Source: a virus
Lineage: Duplodnaviria; Caudoviricetes
Direction: 5' to 3' (one strand)
DNA: 64,000 nucleotides
IMG/VR virus record: IMGVR_UViG_3300011113_000415
Every line of letters starts with the position of its first letter. The stretch's first letter is position 1. This document shows, piece by piece, positions 384 through 44,380 of this stretch. The notes beneath the pieces were generated by a model. It worked only from the letters and a program-made list of their open reading frames with translations, had not been told where the DNA came from and ran no database searches. Made by a program: the position numbers and the translations under genes.

Positions 384-1009
384 ATTACTTTAAAGATAGC
401 ATGATGAGACTTAGGTCCAAAGGTATTTGATTGTGTATCTATACTGTGGTCAACATGAAAACGATTATAAACTAAAAATTGTTTTGATAAGGCTTCTGGT
501 AAATCTAAATTTTCATTATCCCAATATAAAAAAATCTTATTTTTTGACGCAAGGATTCTATTTACTTGATCCACATAATCAATCAATCTAGAAATACAAA
601 AATCTTTTTCATTAAAAATCGTAACAGTTTGATCATCAATTCGACGTCTATTGGCATTGTTAACCTGTATGATAAAAATATCATTACAATTGCTGTTTGC
701 CATAATTTTTAAATTGTTTAAATTATCATGGTTTTCATAACGATAACAACCAAAACTCATGTTACAGAGATGTAAATTTAATTGAGCAGCCAATTTATAG
801 GCATAGGTCAAGGATTGGTCAAGTCCTATTCCAAAACTTATACTGCCCCCAACTACCACTAGTTTTTTAGTTGTAGAATCAAATTCATCACAACGGAATC
901 CATGTTTATTAAAACTGTAATTGATAATATTACGATTGTCTATACCAAAATTGCTCACAGTTTTTCCTGCAAGAGATTTCATGTGGGCTGGTAGTGTCCA
1001 ATTTTCCAT
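335..1009 (-). CDS. Hypothetical protein, SGNH/GDSL-like
   Basis: 224 aa ORF; YSFNKHGFRCDEF followed by VVVGGSISFG resembles SGNH block I; AT-rich. Confidence 0.45.
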   Translation of the reverse strand: MENWTLPAHMKSLAGKTVSNFGIDNRNIINYSFNKHGFRCDEFDSTTKKLVVVGGSISFGIGLDQSLTYAYKLAAQLNLHLCNMSFGCYRYENHDNLNNLKIMANSNCNDIFIIQVNNANRRRIDDQTVTIFNEKDFCISRLIDYVDQVNRILASKNKIFLYWDNENLDLPEALSKQFLVYNRFHVDHSIDTQSNTFGPKSHHAIFKVIYNRLSSQSVALKLIS

Positions 1010-1707
1010 AAAAGCAGTTCTTTTCTAATTAAAAATTTTGTCTTAGTATCTACCTCGACTCTTTTGTCAAGGAACTGTTTAAGAAATCCTTGGTTGCGAT
1101 TTTTCCAGTCAAAGTAAAGTGGGCACCACTGATCCATACGCAGTGGATTTATTTTTAAGCCTAAAAAATCAAACATTGATTCAATCATCTTGTCAAGATT
1201 TTGAAATAGATCTTGGTAATACAACAGTTGATAGCCTTGGAAATTTTCTGGTATTTTATAGTAATCTACGAAGATTTCAGCATGTTCTAACAGTATCTGG
1301 CGTGTGGCATCTGTTCCAAATACATGATAAAGATTTTCAATCTTTTTTACAAATTCATTTTTTTTGTTTATTGTACAGAATCTTGCCAAAAGTTCTTGGT
1401 TGGAATTTCCTGCCTGGAAAATAATTTTTTTACAAGTGTATCTGGTCAAATAATCAATGTCATATTGATGACTGGGAGTGATATAAATTACAGACTGTTC
1501 ATTTGCATTTTCAAGTTGACGTAAATCTTTTGAATATCTGATATGATCTTTCTCAAATCCATGAGCGGTAGGTCCGATTAATGGATTTATATCAACTGGC
1601 ACCACAAGATTGTTTAAAGTTTTGTATGAGGCGGCTCCAGTCAAATAAGTAATAGACCAATTTAAAAAAGTAAAACCACAGCCACCAGGACCAATAGTCA
1701 AGATCAT
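979..1707 (-). CDS. Sulfotransferase-like P-loop protein
   Basis: N-terminal beta-strand plus Gly-rich loop ILTIGPGGCGFTFL; C-terminal LLYYQDLF...MFDFLGL resembles the sulfotransferase 'yEdl...i..fLg' segment. Confidence 0.45.
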   Translation of the reverse strand: MILTIGPGGCGFTFLNWSITYLTGAASYKTLNNLVVPVDINPLIGPTAHGFEKDHIRYSKDLRQLENANEQSVIYITPSHQYDIDYLTRYTCKKIIFQAGNSNQELLARFCTINKKNEFVKKIENLYHVFGTDATRQILLEHAEIFVDYYKIPENFQGYQLLYYQDLFQNLDKMIESMFDFLGLKINPLRMDQWCPLYFDWKNRNQGFLKQFLDKRVEVDTKTKFLIRKELLLWKIGHYQPT

Positions 1708-7808: not shown

Positions 7809-8534
7809 TCACAGTCGGGTGTAAACAAAATACAATCTTTCATTGGCTTCACGTTTAAATGTATTCAATTGTAATTTATATCGTTCAGCAAATTCATTTG
7901 CTACTTCAAATGTCCAAGGAAAAATATCCACGTACGGTCCAGTTCTGTGCGGAATACCTGGATTGGCTCGTAGATAAAAGCGCCCACCTACCCGAAGCAA
8001 ATTTACACAGTGAGCAAAACGTTGTTCTATTTCATCTCGTGAATTAAAGTTGATTGAGCCCAAGGCCATGATTACATCGTACTGGTGGTTTACTCTATAT
8101 TCCAAAATATCAACTTCATAATCTGCGCAGTTATTGTACGGGTCAATTCCTACCAAATTCTGTATGCGTCCTTTGAAAGGATGATAGCCACAGCCCACGT
8201 CCAACACCCGTTCAGGATTTAATCGATTGATTTCATCCGCCAATTCCCAACCAGTGTGTTCATAGTCGCCAGTGCGCGGCTTCCATATTTCTGAAAAGAA
8301 ACGCAAGATATAGCGTTCACTCAGATCATCGGTGATTTCTCGTAATGTACCCACATAATCACAGGGCAAACTGAGTTCTGCGTCTATAGCGTCTCGGAAC
8401 TTTCTATAACGTGCCGGAGTCCAAGGTAAGTCTTGTACCTGGGTATCAGCGCCGATAGAAATATTTGCATACTTAGGTAAATTAAACGCAGATTGCAAAT
8501 TTTTTTGTAAAAGGTTAAAAATTTTTAAATTCAT
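7809..8534 (-). CDS. Class I SAM-dependent methyltransferase
   Basis: VLDVGCG motif I, VGIDP, YDVIMALGSINF, LRVGG. Confidence 0.75.
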   Translation of the reverse strand: MNLKIFNLLQKNLQSAFNLPKYANISIGADTQVQDLPWTPARYRKFRDAIDAELSLPCDYVGTLREITDDLSERYILRFFSEIWKPRTGDYEHTGWELADEINRLNPERVLDVGCGYHPFKGRIQNLVGIDPYNNCADYEVDILEYRVNHQYDVIMALGSINFNSRDEIEQRFAHCVNLLRVGGRFYLRANPGIPHRTGPYVDIFPWTFEVANEFAERYKLQLNTFKREANERLYFVYTRL

Positions 8535-8546
8535 AGAAATTTTTGG

Positions 8547-8576
8547 TAAATAAAGTTGATTTTCAAATACTATTTA
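8547..8576. promoter_or_regulatory. Divergent putative late promoters
   Basis: TAAATA at 8547-8552 (+) and TATTTA at 8571-8576 (TAAATA on -) between divergent genes. Confidence 0.45.
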
Positions 8577-8586
8577 AGGAGTTTCT

Positions 8587-9564
8587 ATGTCAATCAAAAA
8601 ATTTATAATCGCCGCACTACTAGTGCCTGTACTGGCTTTTGCCTGGGAGCCTGTCAAGCCAGTCACAGTTATTATTGGCAACACACCCGGCGCTGGAAAT
8701 GAAATGGCCTTTAGAAAACTGGCCGAAATTGTACAAAAGCGAAATCCCAACTTTGTTTATGTTGTGCAAAACATTCCTGGTGCAGATTCAGTTATTGCCA
8801 ACAATAAATTTTTGGAAGCGCCCAATGACGGATATACTATCAACTTGCCCAGCCACATGAGCAGTTATGTCACAAATGATATCTGGGAAAAGAATTTAAA
8901 GAAGTACAATTATGACAGTTTTGTAGACGTGCTGACCATGGGCAAAAGTCCACTGGTCTTGGTTGCATCAGTAAAGAGTGGAATTGAAACCCCACAAGAC
9001 TTTGTGAAGTATATACAATCTGGAAGAAACATCAATATAGCCATTGGTGGTGGCGCACATCGCACAGCATTTGAATATTTGATGGAAAAAGGCCGGGGCA
9101 ATCGAGACGCTGTTCGTTCGATCAAATTCAATGGTCCTGTGCCTGCGCTACAAAGTGTTGGACAGTGGGATGGACGAACTGGAACTGAATTTGGTATCAT
9201 GCCTATCGCTGTGGCCAAAGCATTGATTGATGCAGGCAAAGTAAAACCCATTGGATTTACAGGCACTAGGAAAATGGCACAATTCCCAAATGTACCGCTA
9301 TTAAACACAGTTGCTCCGGGCATCAATGTGTATGCGGCTTGGTCAATCGAATTGCCGCCAGGAACTAACAAGGACATTGTAGAATGGTATCAACGTGAAT
9401 TTTCAACTGCAATTCGTTCAGCCGAATATAGAGAATACACAGATGCCAATGTTATATTCTACTCTGAAGATGAACTCACACCAGCAGGTCTTAAAAAGCA
9501 CATGGATGAATTACGTGCGTCATTTATTCCTGTGCTGAGTCGAATTGATTTAAGTAAAGAATGA
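8587..9564 (+). CDS. Tripartite tricarboxylate transporter substrate-binding protein (TctC/Bug family)
   Basis: Signal peptide; KPVTVIIGNTPGAGNE, VVQNIPGADSVIA, APNDGYTI, FPNVP, PPGT matching TctC hallmarks (P..PGG..D, VENkPGA, PDGYT, PDVPT, P.GTP). Confidence 0.85.
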   Translation: MSIKKFIIAALLVPVLAFAWEPVKPVTVIIGNTPGAGNEMAFRKLAEIVQKRNPNFVYVVQNIPGADSVIANNKFLEAPNDGYTINLPSHMSSYVTNDIWEKNLKKYNYDSFVDVLTMGKSPLVLVASVKSGIETPQDFVKYIQSGRNINIAIGGGAHRTAFEYLMEKGRGNRDAVRSIKFNGPVPALQSVGQWDGRTGTEFGIMPIAVAKALIDAGKVKPIGFTGTRKMAQFPNVPLLNTVAPGINVYAAWSIELPPGTNKDIVEWYQREFSTAIRSAEYREYTDANVIFYSEDELTPAGLKKHMDELRASFIPVLSRIDLSKE

Positions 9565-10181
9565 AATATATCTTTGTGGCCGGCGCACCAGGCTCTAAAT
9601 GGTCGAGTGTAGTTAAAAATATCTATTATTCACCAGATATTGACAGATCTGATTATTCAGATGCACGTACCTATTATCACGATGCGTCAGGAAAATACGA
9701 CTTGATGCATCTGGGTGCATATTTTGACCCTGGAATGGAATTTGGCAATTTCTTTGATCAATTGGATCAGTACACAAAAGAACAATGTGAAACAGAATTT
9801 GATAGACCATTTTTGGGCACAGGTATACGCATTTTAAAAAGTCACGTGTTTGCCAATCATATTGATTATATCAAACAGACCTGGCCCGATTGTCCTATAG
9901 TGCTAGTGCATCGTGACGATGACGCTTGTTTGGGCTGGTGGGTCAAGTGCGGACATTTTGACATCACATATCCATTGTATCACGATTATTATCAAAACCT
10001 ACGAACCATGGCCGGTATAATTCGAGATCAAAATGAAGGTATACAACAGGCCGCATGGGATTATCCACGCAGACAGCCTCAGACCAATCGCGAATTGGCC
10101 AGGATTTTGGCCATTGCAGAACCGCCTGAGGGCTACGAACAACACTATATACAACACAACATTCGAGTGAGAGTAATATGA
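9561..10181 (+). CDS. P-loop/sulfotransferase-like protein
   Basis: IFVAGAPGSKWSS loop; ILKSH and IVLVHRD segments typical of the sulfotransferase fold. Confidence 0.5.
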   Translation: MKYIFVAGAPGSKWSSVVKNIYYSPDIDRSDYSDARTYYHDASGKYDLMHLGAYFDPGMEFGNFFDQLDQYTKEQCETEFDRPFLGTGIRILKSHVFANHIDYIKQTWPDCPIVLVHRDDDACLGWWVKCGHFDITYPLYHDYYQNLRTMAGIIRDQNEGIQQAAWDYPRRQPQTNRELARILAIAEPPEGYEQHYIQHNIRVRVI

Positions 10182-10828
10182 ATTCCAGTTGGGACATCAG
10201 CCGAGCATTAAGTACCTATCATTTTGATAGCCAAATCATTGATCAACCCCAAGATGTTGTACACTATTTGGGTCGCATCGAACCCACGTGGCTGGCAGAT
10301 CTTGAGGATATTGTGGCCAATTCCAGGCCTGCAACCTGGGCCACACGTGGTTACAAAGGCGAAGGCATTGAAGCACCGTCAGAAGAACTAGAACGAGAAC
10401 TGTATGATTTGACACGACACGGCATGAGTACAGATTTGCCAATCACACACCTAAACTGGCGCATACCCGAAAGTCTGCAACGCATCAGCGACGCATTTGC
10501 CTTGGATTCTTGCATGGATCGCATACATGTTCAGCGTCCCGGAGAAGTGTGGAATAGACACATTGACAAATTGGCCAAGTGGGCGCCAGATCATCCTGAC
10601 ACTGTCATGCGAATCATGATACAACTCACAGACTGGCAGCCAGGGCAGTTTTGGGAATACGGCAATTATCACTACAATCACTGGCGTGCCGGAGATGTCA
10701 CAACATTTGACTGGGCCAACATTCCGCACTGCACAGCCAATGCTGGACATCATGCCAGAGTCACACTTCAATTGACCGGAATTAAAACAGCCGCTACCAT
10801 GGATTATCTAGCACAATTGCCGCTATGA
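10178..10828 (+). CDS. 2OG-Fe(II)/cupin oxygenase (Asp/Asn beta-hydroxylase-like)
   Basis: RIHVQRPGEVWNRHID (HxD), distal H in PHCTANAG, R in ARVTLQ. Confidence 0.65.
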   Translation: MNSSWDISRALSTYHFDSQIIDQPQDVVHYLGRIEPTWLADLEDIVANSRPATWATRGYKGEGIEAPSEELERELYDLTRHGMSTDLPITHLNWRIPESLQRISDAFALDSCMDRIHVQRPGEVWNRHIDKLAKWAPDHPDTVMRIMIQLTDWQPGQFWEYGNYHYNHWRAGDVTTFDWANIPHCTANAGHHARVTLQLTGIKTAATMDYLAQLPL

Positions 10829-11448
10829 AGACTTTGTTGATCATGACAGGGCCGCAAGGTTCGGGCAATCACATGTGGTCAAAAATCTTTGCCTTGCATC
10901 CTGAAGTTCACGGCTGGCGGGCCCTGCTGGATCAATATTGGATAGGTCACGACCAAGAACCTTTTGCCAAGTACTGGGCCAATCCTGATTTATTAGAGAG
11001 TTTTGAATGGCAACACCGCTACTATGTGACGTCTATCAGTGTGCCTTACATGAACAATGGCACTGCAACCAAGCCCAACATTGTGCGTTTTGCCGCCTGC
11101 GCCATGGGAGCAGGATTGCGAGTCAAGATTGCTATCTTGGGACGTGATCGCAATATTGTCGATTATCAACAAATACGGGTGCGCGGAGCCAGCACACATG
11201 AACAGGCCTTGGCTGAATATCAAAAGTTGACATCTTGGCAACCCACATATTTGAGTTATGAATTGTTGTACATGTATGGCAGTGACTATTTGCGTCGATT
11301 GAGTGATCAATTAGAATTTCCAATTGCCTACAATGATCCCAGACTAAAAGAAATCATGGCCGAGGACACAAACAGTAAATATTTTACGGCTATTGATTAT
11401 CACCCTACAGATGATTTAGCACGCTACGCTTCAAGGAAACACCGATGA
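10825..11448 (+). CDS. P-loop/sulfotransferase-like protein
   Basis: IMTGPQGSGNH loop; ILGRD; YLSYELL. Confidence 0.5.
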   Translation: MKTLLIMTGPQGSGNHMWSKIFALHPEVHGWRALLDQYWIGHDQEPFAKYWANPDLLESFEWQHRYYVTSISVPYMNNGTATKPNIVRFAACAMGAGLRVKIAILGRDRNIVDYQQIRVRGASTHEQALAEYQKLTSWQPTYLSYELLYMYGSDYLRRLSDQLEFPIAYNDPRLKEIMAEDTNSKYFTAIDYHPTDDLARYASRKHR

Positions 11449-12287
11449 AAACCACCCGACGCATATTGATAATGGGCCTGCCAGGAGCAGGCAAAACTTA
11501 CTTTGCCGAACGACTAAAAAAATATTTAGAAGATCATATCAAACCCATAAATGAACACAGTCTGCGACCCATTGCAGATGCACAAGTCTCTGTGACCTGG
11601 TTCAATGCTGATGACATACGCAAAAAGTACAATGACTGGGATTTTTCACACGAAGGTCGCATACGTCAAAGTATCCGCATGCGAGACCTGGCGGATGAGT
11701 CTGGTTCTGATTATGCCATTGTGGACTTTGTGGCACCGCTAGTGGAAATGCGCAACAATTTCAAAGCCGACTGGACCATCTGGATTGACACTATAGAAAA
11801 AGGTCGCTTTGAAGACACAAATAAGATATTTGTGCCACCCGAAGTTTATGATTTCCGCATTACAGAACAGGCCGCAGAAAAATGGTCAGAATTTGTAGGC
11901 GAGCATATTGTGGAAAATAGACGAAGACCCGTTTTTGACTGGCAAAAGGAAACTGTGCAGATGCTGGGCCGCTGGCAACCTTGGCATCAAGGACATCGTG
12001 CCTTGTTTGAACGTGCTATTGCCAAGACCGGACAGGTTGTGATACAAATACGTGACTGTCAGGGCTGGCAAGGAACCAATCCCTTTGCCATAGAACAAGT
12101 TAAATATTTCATACAGCGGGACCTAGATCCTGTATATCAAGGACAGTATGAAATTCAAGTTGTTCCTAATATTGTTAATATCACTTACGGTCGCGATGTC
12201 GGTTATCGTATCGAACAAGAGTCCTTTGATGAACAGACTACCAATATCTCAGCGACCAAGATAAGAAAGGCCATGGGCCTTGAATAA
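11445..12287 (+). CDS. Fusion: adenylylsulfate-kinase-like P-loop kinase plus HxGH nucleotidyltransferase
   Basis: GLPGAGKT, NADDIRK, DFVAP, FEDT..IFVPP (CysC-like) then MLGRWQPWHQGH and ISATKIR (HIGH/KMSKS-type). Confidence 0.75.
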   Translation: MKTTRRILIMGLPGAGKTYFAERLKKYLEDHIKPINEHSLRPIADAQVSVTWFNADDIRKKYNDWDFSHEGRIRQSIRMRDLADESGSDYAIVDFVAPLVEMRNNFKADWTIWIDTIEKGRFEDTNKIFVPPEVYDFRITEQAAEKWSEFVGEHIVENRRRPVFDWQKETVQMLGRWQPWHQGHRALFERAIAKTGQVVIQIRDCQGWQGTNPFAIEQVKYFIQRDLDPVYQGQYEIQVVPNIVNITYGRDVGYRIEQESFDEQTTNISATKIRKAMGLE

Positions 12288-12504
12288 GTACCACGTGAGA
12301 TTCAATACCAAGCACAATGGTTCTGAACTAGTATGGCGTGTGTTTGAAAATGGTATTGAACACCTAGCCAAAGATGTAAGATTGGTGGGCGAAACCTTTA
12401 CAGAATGCACACACGAACATGGCGAAACCAAATGGAATATCGCCTGTGCGGGCCGTTTAATATGGGTAGATAACGTAGCGGTAATTGTGACCGGCAAGGA
12501 CTAG
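12280..12504 (+). CDS. Hypothetical protein
   Basis: 74 aa ORF overlapping the previous stop, operon-like. Confidence 0.55.
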   Translation: MNKYHVRFNTKHNGSELVWRVFENGIEHLAKDVRLVGETFTECTHEHGETKWNIACAGRLIWVDNVAVIVTGKD

Positions 12505-43002: not shown

Positions 43003-43721
43003 GAGACCATCTATTAGACCTAGTGCAACACACACACGATCTTGGCTGTATTGACTTGATCAAAATTGTAGGCGATGATGCCGCAACTGCAATCAACGGC
43101 TTAGCAGAAGACAAAAGTGTGGTAGTAGAAGCCAGATTCCACAATCCTGTGGCAGACTTCGCAGGCACTTTTGGCATGCCAAACTTGGCCAAACTCAAGA
43201 TCTTGTTGAACCTGCAAGAATATCGAGAAAATGCCAAAATAACATTGACTAAAAAATCTACTGGTGCTCCTGATGGCCTGAACTTTGAAAATGCCGACGG
43301 CGATTTCAAGAACAACTATAGATTTATGGCAGCCGAGATTGTGAATGAAAAACTCAAGACACTCAAGTTCAAAACACCCACATGGCATATTGAACTAGAA
43401 CCCACGGTGGCTGCCATTCAGCGCCTACGCATGCAGGCACAGGCCAATGCTGAAGAAATCAATTTCACCGCCAAGACTGAAAACGGAGACTTAAAGTTTT
43501 TCTTTGGAGATCATTCTACCCATGCTGGTAACTTTGTGTTCCAGGCCGGTGTAGCAGGTCAACTCAAACGTGCTTGGGCATGGCCAGTAGCACAGGTATT
43601 GAGCATCATGGGACTGGTCGGAGACAAGACCATGCGTATTTCGGATGACGGTGCCATGCAAATCACAGTAGATTCCGGCCTGGCTGTGTACAATTATATC
43701 CTTCCAGCACAAAGCAAGTGA
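42999..43721 (+). CDS. Probable DNA polymerase sliding clamp (gp45/PCNA-like)
   Basis: 240 aa, alternating helix/strand two-domain pattern ending YNYILP; located near PolB. Confidence 0.5.
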   Translation: MRDHLLDLVQHTHDLGCIDLIKIVGDDAATAINGLAEDKSVVVEARFHNPVADFAGTFGMPNLAKLKILLNLQEYRENAKITLTKKSTGAPDGLNFENADGDFKNNYRFMAAEIVNEKLKTLKFKTPTWHIELEPTVAAIQRLRMQAQANAEEINFTAKTENGDLKFFFGDHSTHAGNFVFQAGVAGQLKRAWAWPVAQVLSIMGLVGDKTMRISDDGAMQITVDSGLAVYNYILPAQSK

Positions 43722-44380
43722 TTGAACAACTGGCATCAAGAGGATACGGATATGGTTCAGGCTGCCTGAGTCCTGACCATACTCAATTCTTGGTGAATAT
43801 ACCAAAGAATGCCAGCAGTTACATGCTGGATTGGGCCAATCGCCACGGCTGGACCAGTGCTATGATTGTTCAGAGCAATGATATCAAAGAGATGATTGTT
43901 TGTATCAGAGATCCTGTTCAACGTTGGGTATCTGGTGTGGGACAGTATCTGACCAGTTATGTGCTGAACGTGACAGGTGCTTACAGTTGGGAAACAGGAC
44001 CAGGTGCTGACGATCAACAGATATCTGCTGATGATTTTATAACAGATTACAATCAAGTAGTAGAGCGATTGTTATTCGATAATCTTTCAAGACTGGATGA
44101 TCATGTTTGGCCTCAGATAGAATTTTTTGAAAATCTCTTGCCTGCAGTTCCAAGAAAGTTTTTCTACATAGATCATGACTTCGATCAGAGTATTGGCGAA
44201 TATCTTGGTTTCTCGCCAGCACACAATCTAGATCGTAATCGCGCAGAATCCAATCCCGACACACACAAAATTCAAACATTTATTCGTCATCGTCTAAATA
44301 CCAGACCCGAACTAGAGCAAAGAGTACGCAAGGCCTATGCTCATGACTATGAACTAATCAAACAAGTATTCAACCAATGA
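43718..44380 (+). CDS. Sulfotransferase family protein
   Basis: 5'-PSB-like IPKNASS; 3'-PB-like IRDPVQRWVSG; terminal YAHDYEL. Confidence 0.7.
   Translation: MIEQLASRGYGYGSGCLSPDHTQFLVNIPKNASSYMLDWANRHGWTSAMIVQSNDIKEMIVCIRDPVQRWVSGVGQYLTSYVLNVTGAYSWETGPGADDQQISADDFITDYNQVVERLLFDNLSRLDDHVWPQIEFFENLLPAVPRKFFYIDHDFDQSIGEYLGFSPAHNLDRNRAESNPDTHKIQTFIRHRLNTRPELEQRVRKAYAHDYELIKQVFNQ

Follow-up and report, generated by a model that had tools for sequence, protein, structure and literature searches.

A gene encoding a kinase fused to a nucleotidyltransferase (KNT; 11445-12287, 280 residues) closes a string of five overlapping genes in a 64,000-nucleotide stretch of viral DNA (Duplodnaviria; Caudoviricetes; IMG/VR record IMGVR_UViG_3300011113_000415), referred to here as the window. 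This DNA comes from an uncultured freshwater jumbo phage, T4-like and approximately 335 kb in size. We favor, with moderate confidence, the reading that KNT is a compact bifunctional synthase of 3′-phosphoadenosine 5′-phosphosulfate (PAPS) dedicated to the phage's own sulfotransferase-fold proteins. In this scheme the nucleotidyltransferase half (NT), a 113-residue HxGH domain, would adenylylate sulfate, converting ATP and sulfate to adenosine 5′-phosphosulfate (APS) and pyrophosphate, and the APS-kinase-like domain would then phosphorylate the 3′-hydroxyl of APS to give PAPS. The donor would be used by ST1 and ST2, two sulfotransferase-fold proteins encoded in the same string, and perhaps by other phage sulfotransferase-like proteins. 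The acceptor would be a glycan or protein that is made or exposed late in infection, and an oxygenase-like protein encoded between ST1 and ST2 may introduce the hydroxyl for sulfation. From the observed anatomy, folds, family relations, and genomic associations described below we infer both catalytic activities, the specificity of NT for sulfate, the reaction order, and the nature of the acceptor.

Domain anatomy of KNT

The original prediction placed a CysC-like kinase fused to an HxGH nucleotidyltransferase at 11445, and the fusion was confirmed by a two-domain AlphaFold2 model built with a 49-sequence alignment (predicted local distance difference test score, pLDDT, 92.2). The kinase half carries the Walker A motif GLPGAGKT, and NT carries the signature GRWQPWHQGH...ISATKIR. 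Across 80 phage loci KNT is 74-88% identical, and its close relatives in metagenomes number more than 7600.

We compared the modeled kinase half with solved structures of several kinase families. APS kinases were matched with VIA Z-scores of 18.3, 18.0, 16.6, and 15.8 and root-mean-square deviations (rmsd) of 1.8-2.7 Å, the best match reaching 1.8 Å over 130 residues, versus Z-scores of 14.8 for gluconate kinase, 11.4 for dephospho-CoA kinase, and 10.5 for nicotinamide riboside kinase. The top 28 Foldseek matches were all APS kinases. In a search with a profile of the kinase-half family, the first 20 solved kinases retrieved were likewise APS kinases (E 4.9e-15 to 1e-9), followed by PSTK at 2e-6. 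Within the family K17, N54, and R59 are invariant and D56, F67, R72, Q75, and F129 nearly so; D56, R59, F67, and R72 align to the D-x-x-R, F-S, and R motifs of APS kinases, D56 as the catalytic Asp and R59, F67, and R72 at APS-binding positions. KNT residues 1-159 thus keep several features of CysC proteins such as those of M. tuberculosis (PDB 4rfv) and Aeropyrum pernix (2yvu): the Walker A motif, a catalytic Asp, two Arg that bind APS, and a stacking Phe. Judged by its predicted fold and by these profiles, the kinase half is a divergent APS-kinase-like member.

The nearest sequence relatives of NT are NadM-type nicotinamide mononucleotide adenylyltransferases (NMNATs) such as MJ0541 (PDB 1f9a) and the Francisella enzyme (2qjt), with which it shares a Rossmann-like fold. 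An NT profile matched archaeal/NadM NMNATs at E 5.7e-13 to 2e-7. The motifs GRWQPWHQGH, TNPF, and ISATKIR of NT correspond to the NMNAT motifs GRFQPxHxGH, NPF, and ISxTxIR and are kept in the family, and its HxGH histidines (H181 and H184) stand in the NMNAT-type GRWQP setting. Invariant residues are G175, R176, Q178, H181, H184, G249, R250, G253, and R274. An invariant Y-G-R-D-V-G-Y aligns to the "YSGN...GY" region of NMNATs, and two invariant arginines, R203 and R250 of YGRDVGY, are specific to the NT family where NMNATs have Gly/Ser and SGN. NT is about a third shorter than NadM-type NMNATs: some 50 residues are absent (110 of 164 aligned), and the profile match to NMNATs spans its first 62 and last 28 residues. 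It also scores far below the NMNAT equivalog cut-offs in NCBIfam (26.5 vs 181.2 bits for TIGR01527 and 27.9 vs 127 for NF002243). Based on sequence, NT is a descendant of archaeal/NadM-type NMNAT-like enzymes and not of the classical ATP sulfurylase family, and therefore a sulfurylase role would be a change of function.

In its overall plan KNT resembles known PAPS synthases, namely human PAPSS1/2 (PDB 1x6v) and the Sat-APS kinase fusions of Aquifex aeolicus and fungi (2gks, 1m8p), in which an APS kinase and an HxxH-type nucleotidyltransferase are also joined in one polypeptide. The kinase comes first in KNT, which is the metazoan order found in PAPSS1/2. Both domains of the KNT model align with 1x6v (252 residues, Z 16.8), with an rmsd of 18.5 Å because the domains are oriented differently. 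The two differ in that KNT has 280 residues versus approximately 620 in PAPS synthases, its kinase lid is shorter and its LDGD motif changed, and its nucleotidyltransferase is a truncated NMNAT-like domain rather than a Sat family member (no PF01747). By this analogy, KNT probably works like a metazoan-order PAPS synthase whose second domain comes from another family.

NT, APS enzymes, and sulfotransferases in bacteria and phages

It is solely through gene fusions, gene neighborhoods, and co-occurrence that sulfate catalysis by NT is suggested. Across 1.8 billion representative proteins, NT was found fused to kinases in the kinase-NT order and in the swapped NT-kinase order (P0207); the two are also encoded by adjacent separate genes. 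A full-length textbook CysC is fused to NT in at least 120 protein clusters (P0238; Pfam APS_kinase E 5.7e-63), and this NT-CysC fusion is chromosomal in OCS116 alphaproteobacteria. A SAR86 chromosomal operon contains genes for a Sulfotransfer_3 protein, an APS kinase, and NT; the kinase is 50% identical to that of the phage, and the NT halves are alike by eye. A motif scan of cellular loci returned no canonical sulfotransferase, and the same scan missed the SAR86 Sulfotransfer_3 gene that was later seen by Pfam. The surroundings of the OCS116 NT-CysC gene (L093 5307-20933; L096) include an MFS transporter, several proteins with TPR and 2OG-FeII_Oxy_5 domains, a 655-residue protein of no assigned family, and a 1660-residue RTX-type protein. 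From their gene content, these surroundings may represent a protein hydroxylation and sulfation system.

In SAR11 bacteria NT stands alone: its gene, whose product is 54% identical to the phage domain, immediately precedes aprB-aprA and the gene for a TauE exporter (L143 10001-13633). In sulfur oxidizers it is sat that usually holds this position beside aprBA. We surveyed 61 Pelagibacteraceae genomes, and NT was present in 21 of the 22 that were AprB-positive and in eight of the 39 that were AprB-negative (Fisher p 9e-9, kinship ignored); it lay within 5 kb of aprB in ten genomes. The Pfam ATP-sulfurylase (Sat) family was detected in three of the 61. Ten other genomes that carry NT contained no Sat, and in only one of them was Pfam PAPS_reduct, to which both CysD and CysH belong, matched in full. 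SAR11 has been described as having aprBA and cysC without sat and cysDN (PMC5069961), and its stand-alone NT is, from its genomic position and its co-occurrence with AprB, a candidate for the ATP sulfurylase reported missing there. NT thus repeatedly accompanies enzymes that consume or produce APS, in genomes that lack a known ATP sulfurylase, and the simplest reading is that NT is an ATP sulfurylase. This role would fit the chemistry of the domain, which is adenylyl transfer with release of pyrophosphate.

To our knowledge, ATP sulfurylase comes in two forms, Sat and CysDN, and no publication was found that describes the NT domain as a sulfurylase. We are evenly divided over a broader proposal, in which NT would be a third, unrecognized class of ATP sulfurylase derived from an NMNAT-like enzyme. 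In that case KNT would be the smallest known PAPS synthase, used by phages for sulfation of the virion or host envelope, and NT would be both the missing sat of SAR11 and the PAPS source of SAR86 and OCS116.

In phages, KNT is often found near sulfotransferase genes. A sulfotransferase-like gene lies within 4 kb of KNT in 42 of 80 related phage loci and adjoins it in nine. The set of ST1, oxygenase-like, ST2, and TctC genes seen in the window is restricted to approximately 12 jumbo-phage loci. In 30 further loci the sulfotransferase encoded within 4 kb of KNT is of another, canonical type that carries the motif LPRSGST near its N-terminus, and all ten genes of this type that were tested score above the cut-offs of Pfam Sulfotransfer_3/_1 (E 1e-13 to 1e-20). 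Proximity to sulfotransferases of several unrelated families is as expected for an enzyme that supplies their donor. Other recurrent neighbors encode FkbM and other methyltransferases, GT-A glycosyltransferases, and SGNH hydrolases, located beside T4 neck and sheath/tail genes, so that the region looks like a glycan or surface-tailoring island. Bacterial sulfation cassettes such as NodPQ with NodH and RaxPQ with RaxST have a private PAPS supply beside the sulfotransferase, provided by a CysD/CysN-type sulfurylase and a canonical CysC. The KNT module resembles these in logic, with a PAPS-making enzyme predicted beside a sulfotransferase, and differs from them in the family of the sulfurylase candidate and in being carried by a phage. 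Fusions between a kinase and a possible sulfotransferase (P0183, P0187, and P0196) have PRSG[CS]T-like motifs, and they were rejected as candidates since the best Pfam match had an E value of 0.087 and a phage sulfotransferase hidden Markov model (HMM) was negative. Some kinase-half relatives (P0170 and P0270) are instead fused to a GDSL/SGNH-like domain (weak Pfam, E 0.009), and an SGNH-like open reading frame (ORF) adjoins KNT in one locus (L016).

Two P-loop sulfotransferase-like genes and a 2-oxoglutarate (2OG) oxygenase had been predicted upstream of KNT, and for both P-loop proteins the models suggest a sulfotransferase fold. ST1 was modeled with an AlphaFold2 pLDDT of 84. Its best structural matches are tyrosylprotein sulfotransferases (TPST1/2; PDB 5wri, 3ap3) and the small bacterial sulfotransferase Cpz8 (9kf1), with up to 165 residues aligned and a Foldseek probability of 0.98 at E 0.012. 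VIA Z-scores for TPSTs were 10.2, 9.8, and 9.6 versus 8.5 for the best kinase (UMP kinase), a modest margin of about 1.7 Z units over P-loop kinases. ST1 is 13-15% identical to these sulfotransferases and has 206 versus approximately 280-370 residues. GAPGSKWSS, K93-S94-H95, and R118 are invariant in the family. Read by eye, this phosphate-loop-like N-terminus, conserved Lys-x-His, and Arg suggest the sulfotransferase pattern of a 5′-phosphosulfate-binding loop near the N-terminus, a base for catalysis, and an Arg that binds the 3′-phosphate. Against Pfam Sulfotransfer_3, ST1 scored 21.4 bits (E 3.4e-4) and its best relative 25.2 bits (E 2.8e-6), both below the cut-off of 27, and the family profile gave chance-level matches only among PDB sequences. 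ST1 has 3904 metagenomic homologs.

For ST2 an ESM Atlas model of the exact protein was available. Residues 1-197 of this model match clusters that are 96-100% Sulfotransfer_3/_5 (also _1) at TM-scores of 0.58-0.70, with feature scores up to 0.94. The ST2 protein itself has no Pfam match. It belongs to a viral cluster of 9886 members, and the invariant residues are GPQG.GNH.WSK and GRD.N. The intervening gene fared less well as a 2OG oxygenase. H128, D130, H184, R194, and T196 form an HxD...H...RxT pattern that is invariant in seven homologs and suggests a cupin or 2OG-Fe(II)-oxygenase-like protein, but no match was found in Pfam, NCBIfam, PHROG, or PDB profile searches, and an hhalign comparison with the 2OG-FeII_Oxy_5 domains encoded next to NT-CysC in OCS116 was negative.

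Evidence against a PAPS synthase and alternative explanations

Several observations weigh against KNT as a PAPS synthase. The kinase half scores 20.7 bits against Pfam APS_kinase (PF01583), just below the cut-off of 21.1, and relatives that do score (36-61 bits) cover only positions 4-91 of the 152 in that profile. The family departs from the L-D-G-D-x-x-R pattern of CysC, with an invariant Asn (N54) in place of the first, Mg-binding Asp of LDGD; the second Asp (D56), the Arg (R59), and the Walker A motif are conserved. The first Ser of the CysC motif SFISP is likewise replaced, by an invariant Asp (D94), and judging from the alignment the paired change at D94 and N54 may be a relocated metal ligand. 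ATP sulfurylases of the Sat type are recognized by an HxxH within Q-x-R-N-P-x-H-x-x-H, a GRD loop, and a PUA-like N-terminal domain. NT lacks the QxRNP motif and the PUA-like domain, it has no PF01747 match, and its structure is closest to those of phosphopantetheine adenylyltransferase and NMNAT (VIA Z 10.6 and 10.3, respectively, over 110 aligned residues). The original prediction had cautioned that the HxGH domain looked more NMNAT/cytidylyltransferase-like, and this caution was justified, as the NT profile that retrieved NMNATs found no ATP sulfurylase at E ≤ 10 in the PDB.

The genomic evidence has its own counterexamples. No sulfotransferase was found near KNT in 38 of the 80 phage loci. 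Cultured phages of Xylella, Xanthomonas, and Stenotrophomonas carry KNT homologs that are 32-39% identical, and the whole records of Xylella phage Bacata and Stenotrophomonas phage DLP_6 contain no Pfam-detectable sulfotransferase, in a search that is blind to ST1-type proteins (record G003). In Bacata the KNT homolog (L081 4562-5738) overlaps a COG3236/NADAR gene and is near MazG; the NADAR neighbor is a hint of NAD/ADP-ribose chemistry, and the enzyme possibly has another use there. Shared ancestry is uncorrected in the SAR11 association, many of the NT-carrier genomes are incomplete single-cell assemblies, and in SAR11 the NT reaction would have to run opposite to the direction needed in the phage. 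A virion glycan, DNA, and the host surface had been proposed as possible acceptors, and the two pointers to an acceptor disagree, with ST1 resembling tyrosine sulfotransferases and the neighbors of KNT being those of glycan tailoring. Set against these points, the originally proposed minimal PAPS synthase feeding sulfotransferases is strengthened by the APS-kinase-like half, by linkage to sulfotransferases in about half of the loci, and by the ties of NT to CysC and AprBA in bacteria without known ATP sulfurylases.

We considered several alternatives. It is unlikely, in our estimation, that only the kinase half takes part in sulfur chemistry, converting host APS to PAPS for the phage sulfotransferases while NT is regulatory, structural, or adenylylates another small phosphate-bearing molecule. 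The kinase half does occur alone in phages phiRSL1 and RsoM2USA and in many metagenomic proteins, and the lack of a sequence match between NT and ATP sulfurylases is consistent with this idea. However, the catalytic HxGH, the Arg of ISATxIR, and other NT residues are invariant, and NT therefore appears to be under selection as an enzyme. The SAR11 NT adjoins aprBA without any kinase, and the joining of NT to APS kinases in three gene orders argues for consecutive steps. Less probable still is that KNT is a NadR-like enzyme of nicotinamide adenine dinucleotide (NAD) metabolism, with NT a true NMN adenylyltransferase and the kinase acting on nicotinamide riboside or an adenine dinucleotide, which would restore NAD(P) or counter NAD-depleting defenses. 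The NMNAT matches of NT and the motifs common to both point this way, as does the Bacata neighborhood, but the kinase half is far nearer to APS kinases than to nicotinamide riboside kinase, and NT falls well short of the NMNAT equivalog cut-off with about a third of the NMNAT domain missing. In addition, no NAPRTase or NAMPT was found in five related phage records, including complete relatives, and among the loci examined NT has no NAD salvage genes alongside, its recurring neighbors being instead sulfotransferases, CysC, and AprBA.

Phage cysC genes are usually annotated as auxiliary metabolic genes that boost assimilatory sulfate reduction in the host for cysteine supply, and cysC of large freshwater phages has been listed under that pathway (preprint 10.1101/2020.02.13.942896); relatives of KNT are named "adenylylsulfate kinase" by JGI. 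Both would favor such a role for KNT. We regard this as very improbable, because PAPS_reduct had no match above cut-off in any of the five records of phage relatives that were searched for it, of which three are at least 97% complete (Sat was not searched there), and the constant neighbors are sulfotransferases, methyltransferases, glycosyltransferases, and SGNH hydrolases by neck and tail genes. SAR11 and SAR86 also carry the same enzyme yet do not assimilate sulfate (PMC5069961). An equally slim prospect is that the module makes some other 3′-phospho-adenylyl donor and that the sulfotransferase-fold proteins transfer a group other than sulfate. This would be compatible with the altered kinase active site (N54 and D94) and with the great divergence from characterized sulfotransferases of ST1 and ST2, whose Pfam scores fall below cut-off. 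In other genomes, however, NT is accompanied by canonical Pfam sulfotransferases, canonical CysC, and AprBA, all of which act on APS or PAPS.

If KNT is indeed a PAPS synthase, many phage genes annotated as cysC would provide the donor for phage-directed sulfation rather than cysteine supply. Sulfation of the virion or the infected cell directed by a phage would be a chemically undescribed modification, and the role of phage sulfotransferases has been called unclear (PMC10580990). A third and very small ATP sulfurylase, if true, would change how sulfur metabolism is read from genomes. SAR86, OCS116, and SAR11 are abundant ocean bacteria thought unable to activate sulfate, and for SAR11 NT would be a concrete candidate for the step reportedly lacking (PMC5069961), testable with one cloned gene. 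A PAPS synthase of 280 residues would also be convenient for enzymatic sulfation in practice.

The gene string and other features of the window

The five genes at 8587-12287 are all on the + strand with a 4-base overlap at each junction, and they encode, from 5′ to 3′, a TctC-type binding protein, ST1, the oxygenase-like protein, ST2, and KNT (Table 1). The four ORFs of the original prediction, from ST1 to KNT, were recovered with their predicted boundaries. This gene packing suggests one late operon whose members are co-transcribed. The TctC gene is preceded by a late-like box, TAAATA, and by a ribosome-binding site, AAGGAG, and downstream of the operon are spanin-like and endolysin genes. 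None of 50,697 phage records matched the operon by blastn.

Table 1 Features of the window that are part of, or close to, the KNT gene string, and more distant sulfotransferase-like candidates
Feature	Position	Strand	Basis
Weak sulfotransferase-like candidate	979..1707	-	Pfam Sulfotransfer_1 E 5.9e-4, 19.7 bits vs cut-off 22
Methyltransferase-like gene, divergent	7809..8534	-	Weak NCBIfam matches to TehB/CmoB methyltransferases, E ~0.009
TctC/Bug-family periplasmic solute-binding protein	8587..9564	+	Pfam TctC E 7e-19; overlaps ST1
ST1, 206 residues, sulfotransferase-fold protein	9561..10181	+	Pfam sub-threshold, structure
Probable cupin / 2OG-Fe(II)-oxygenase-like protein, 216 residues	10178..10828	+	Motif level only
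ST2, 207 residues, sulfotransferase-fold protein	10825..11448	+	ESM Atlas model of exact protein
KNT residues 1-159, divergent APS-kinase-like P-loop domain	11445..11921	+	Fold and profile
KNT residues 167-280 and stop codon, minimal HxGH nucleotidyltransferase (NT), proposed ATP sulfurylase	11943..12287	+	Profile, fold, context
Small conserved ORF, ~66 residues, possible KNT partner	12305..12502	+	Directly 3′ of KNT; no Pfam match
Sulfotransfer_2-like candidate, motif level	43718..44380	+	Pfam Sulfotransfer_2 E 4.4e-3, 17.6 bits vs cut-off 22

The TctC gene is the first of the overlapping string, and in nine related loci it adjoins ST1, as it always does in relatives. No TctA or TctB genes were found near it. 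The TctC protein is predicted to have a signal peptide, and its relatives have signal-peptide-like N-termini. The methyltransferase-like gene on the opposite strand also adjoins the TctC gene in nine related loci. The two diverge from the same gap (8540-8586), in which the TAAATA box lies approximately 35 nucleotides before the TctC start codon. A homolog of the small ORF that follows KNT is found directly after KNT in 14 of the 80 loci, some of which are without ST1 or ST2.

Further sulfotransferase-like genes had been proposed at 979, 43718, and 47334. The first two keep some support, from weak Pfam matches in both and from motifs in the second, whereas for 47334 no tool supported a likeness to sulfotransferases. 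Homologs of the three genes added no Pfam support, a profile of gene 43718 had no solved relative in the PDB, and when 26 canonical sulfotransferases of phages were used to build an HMM, it detected none of ST1, ST2, 43718, and 47334. Gene 43718 encodes IPKNASS and RDPxQRWxS motifs (PSB/PB-like), and IPKNASS and RDPxxRWxS are invariant in eight homologs. Beside gene 979 is a gene on the - strand (335-1009) whose product is SGNH-like by eye.

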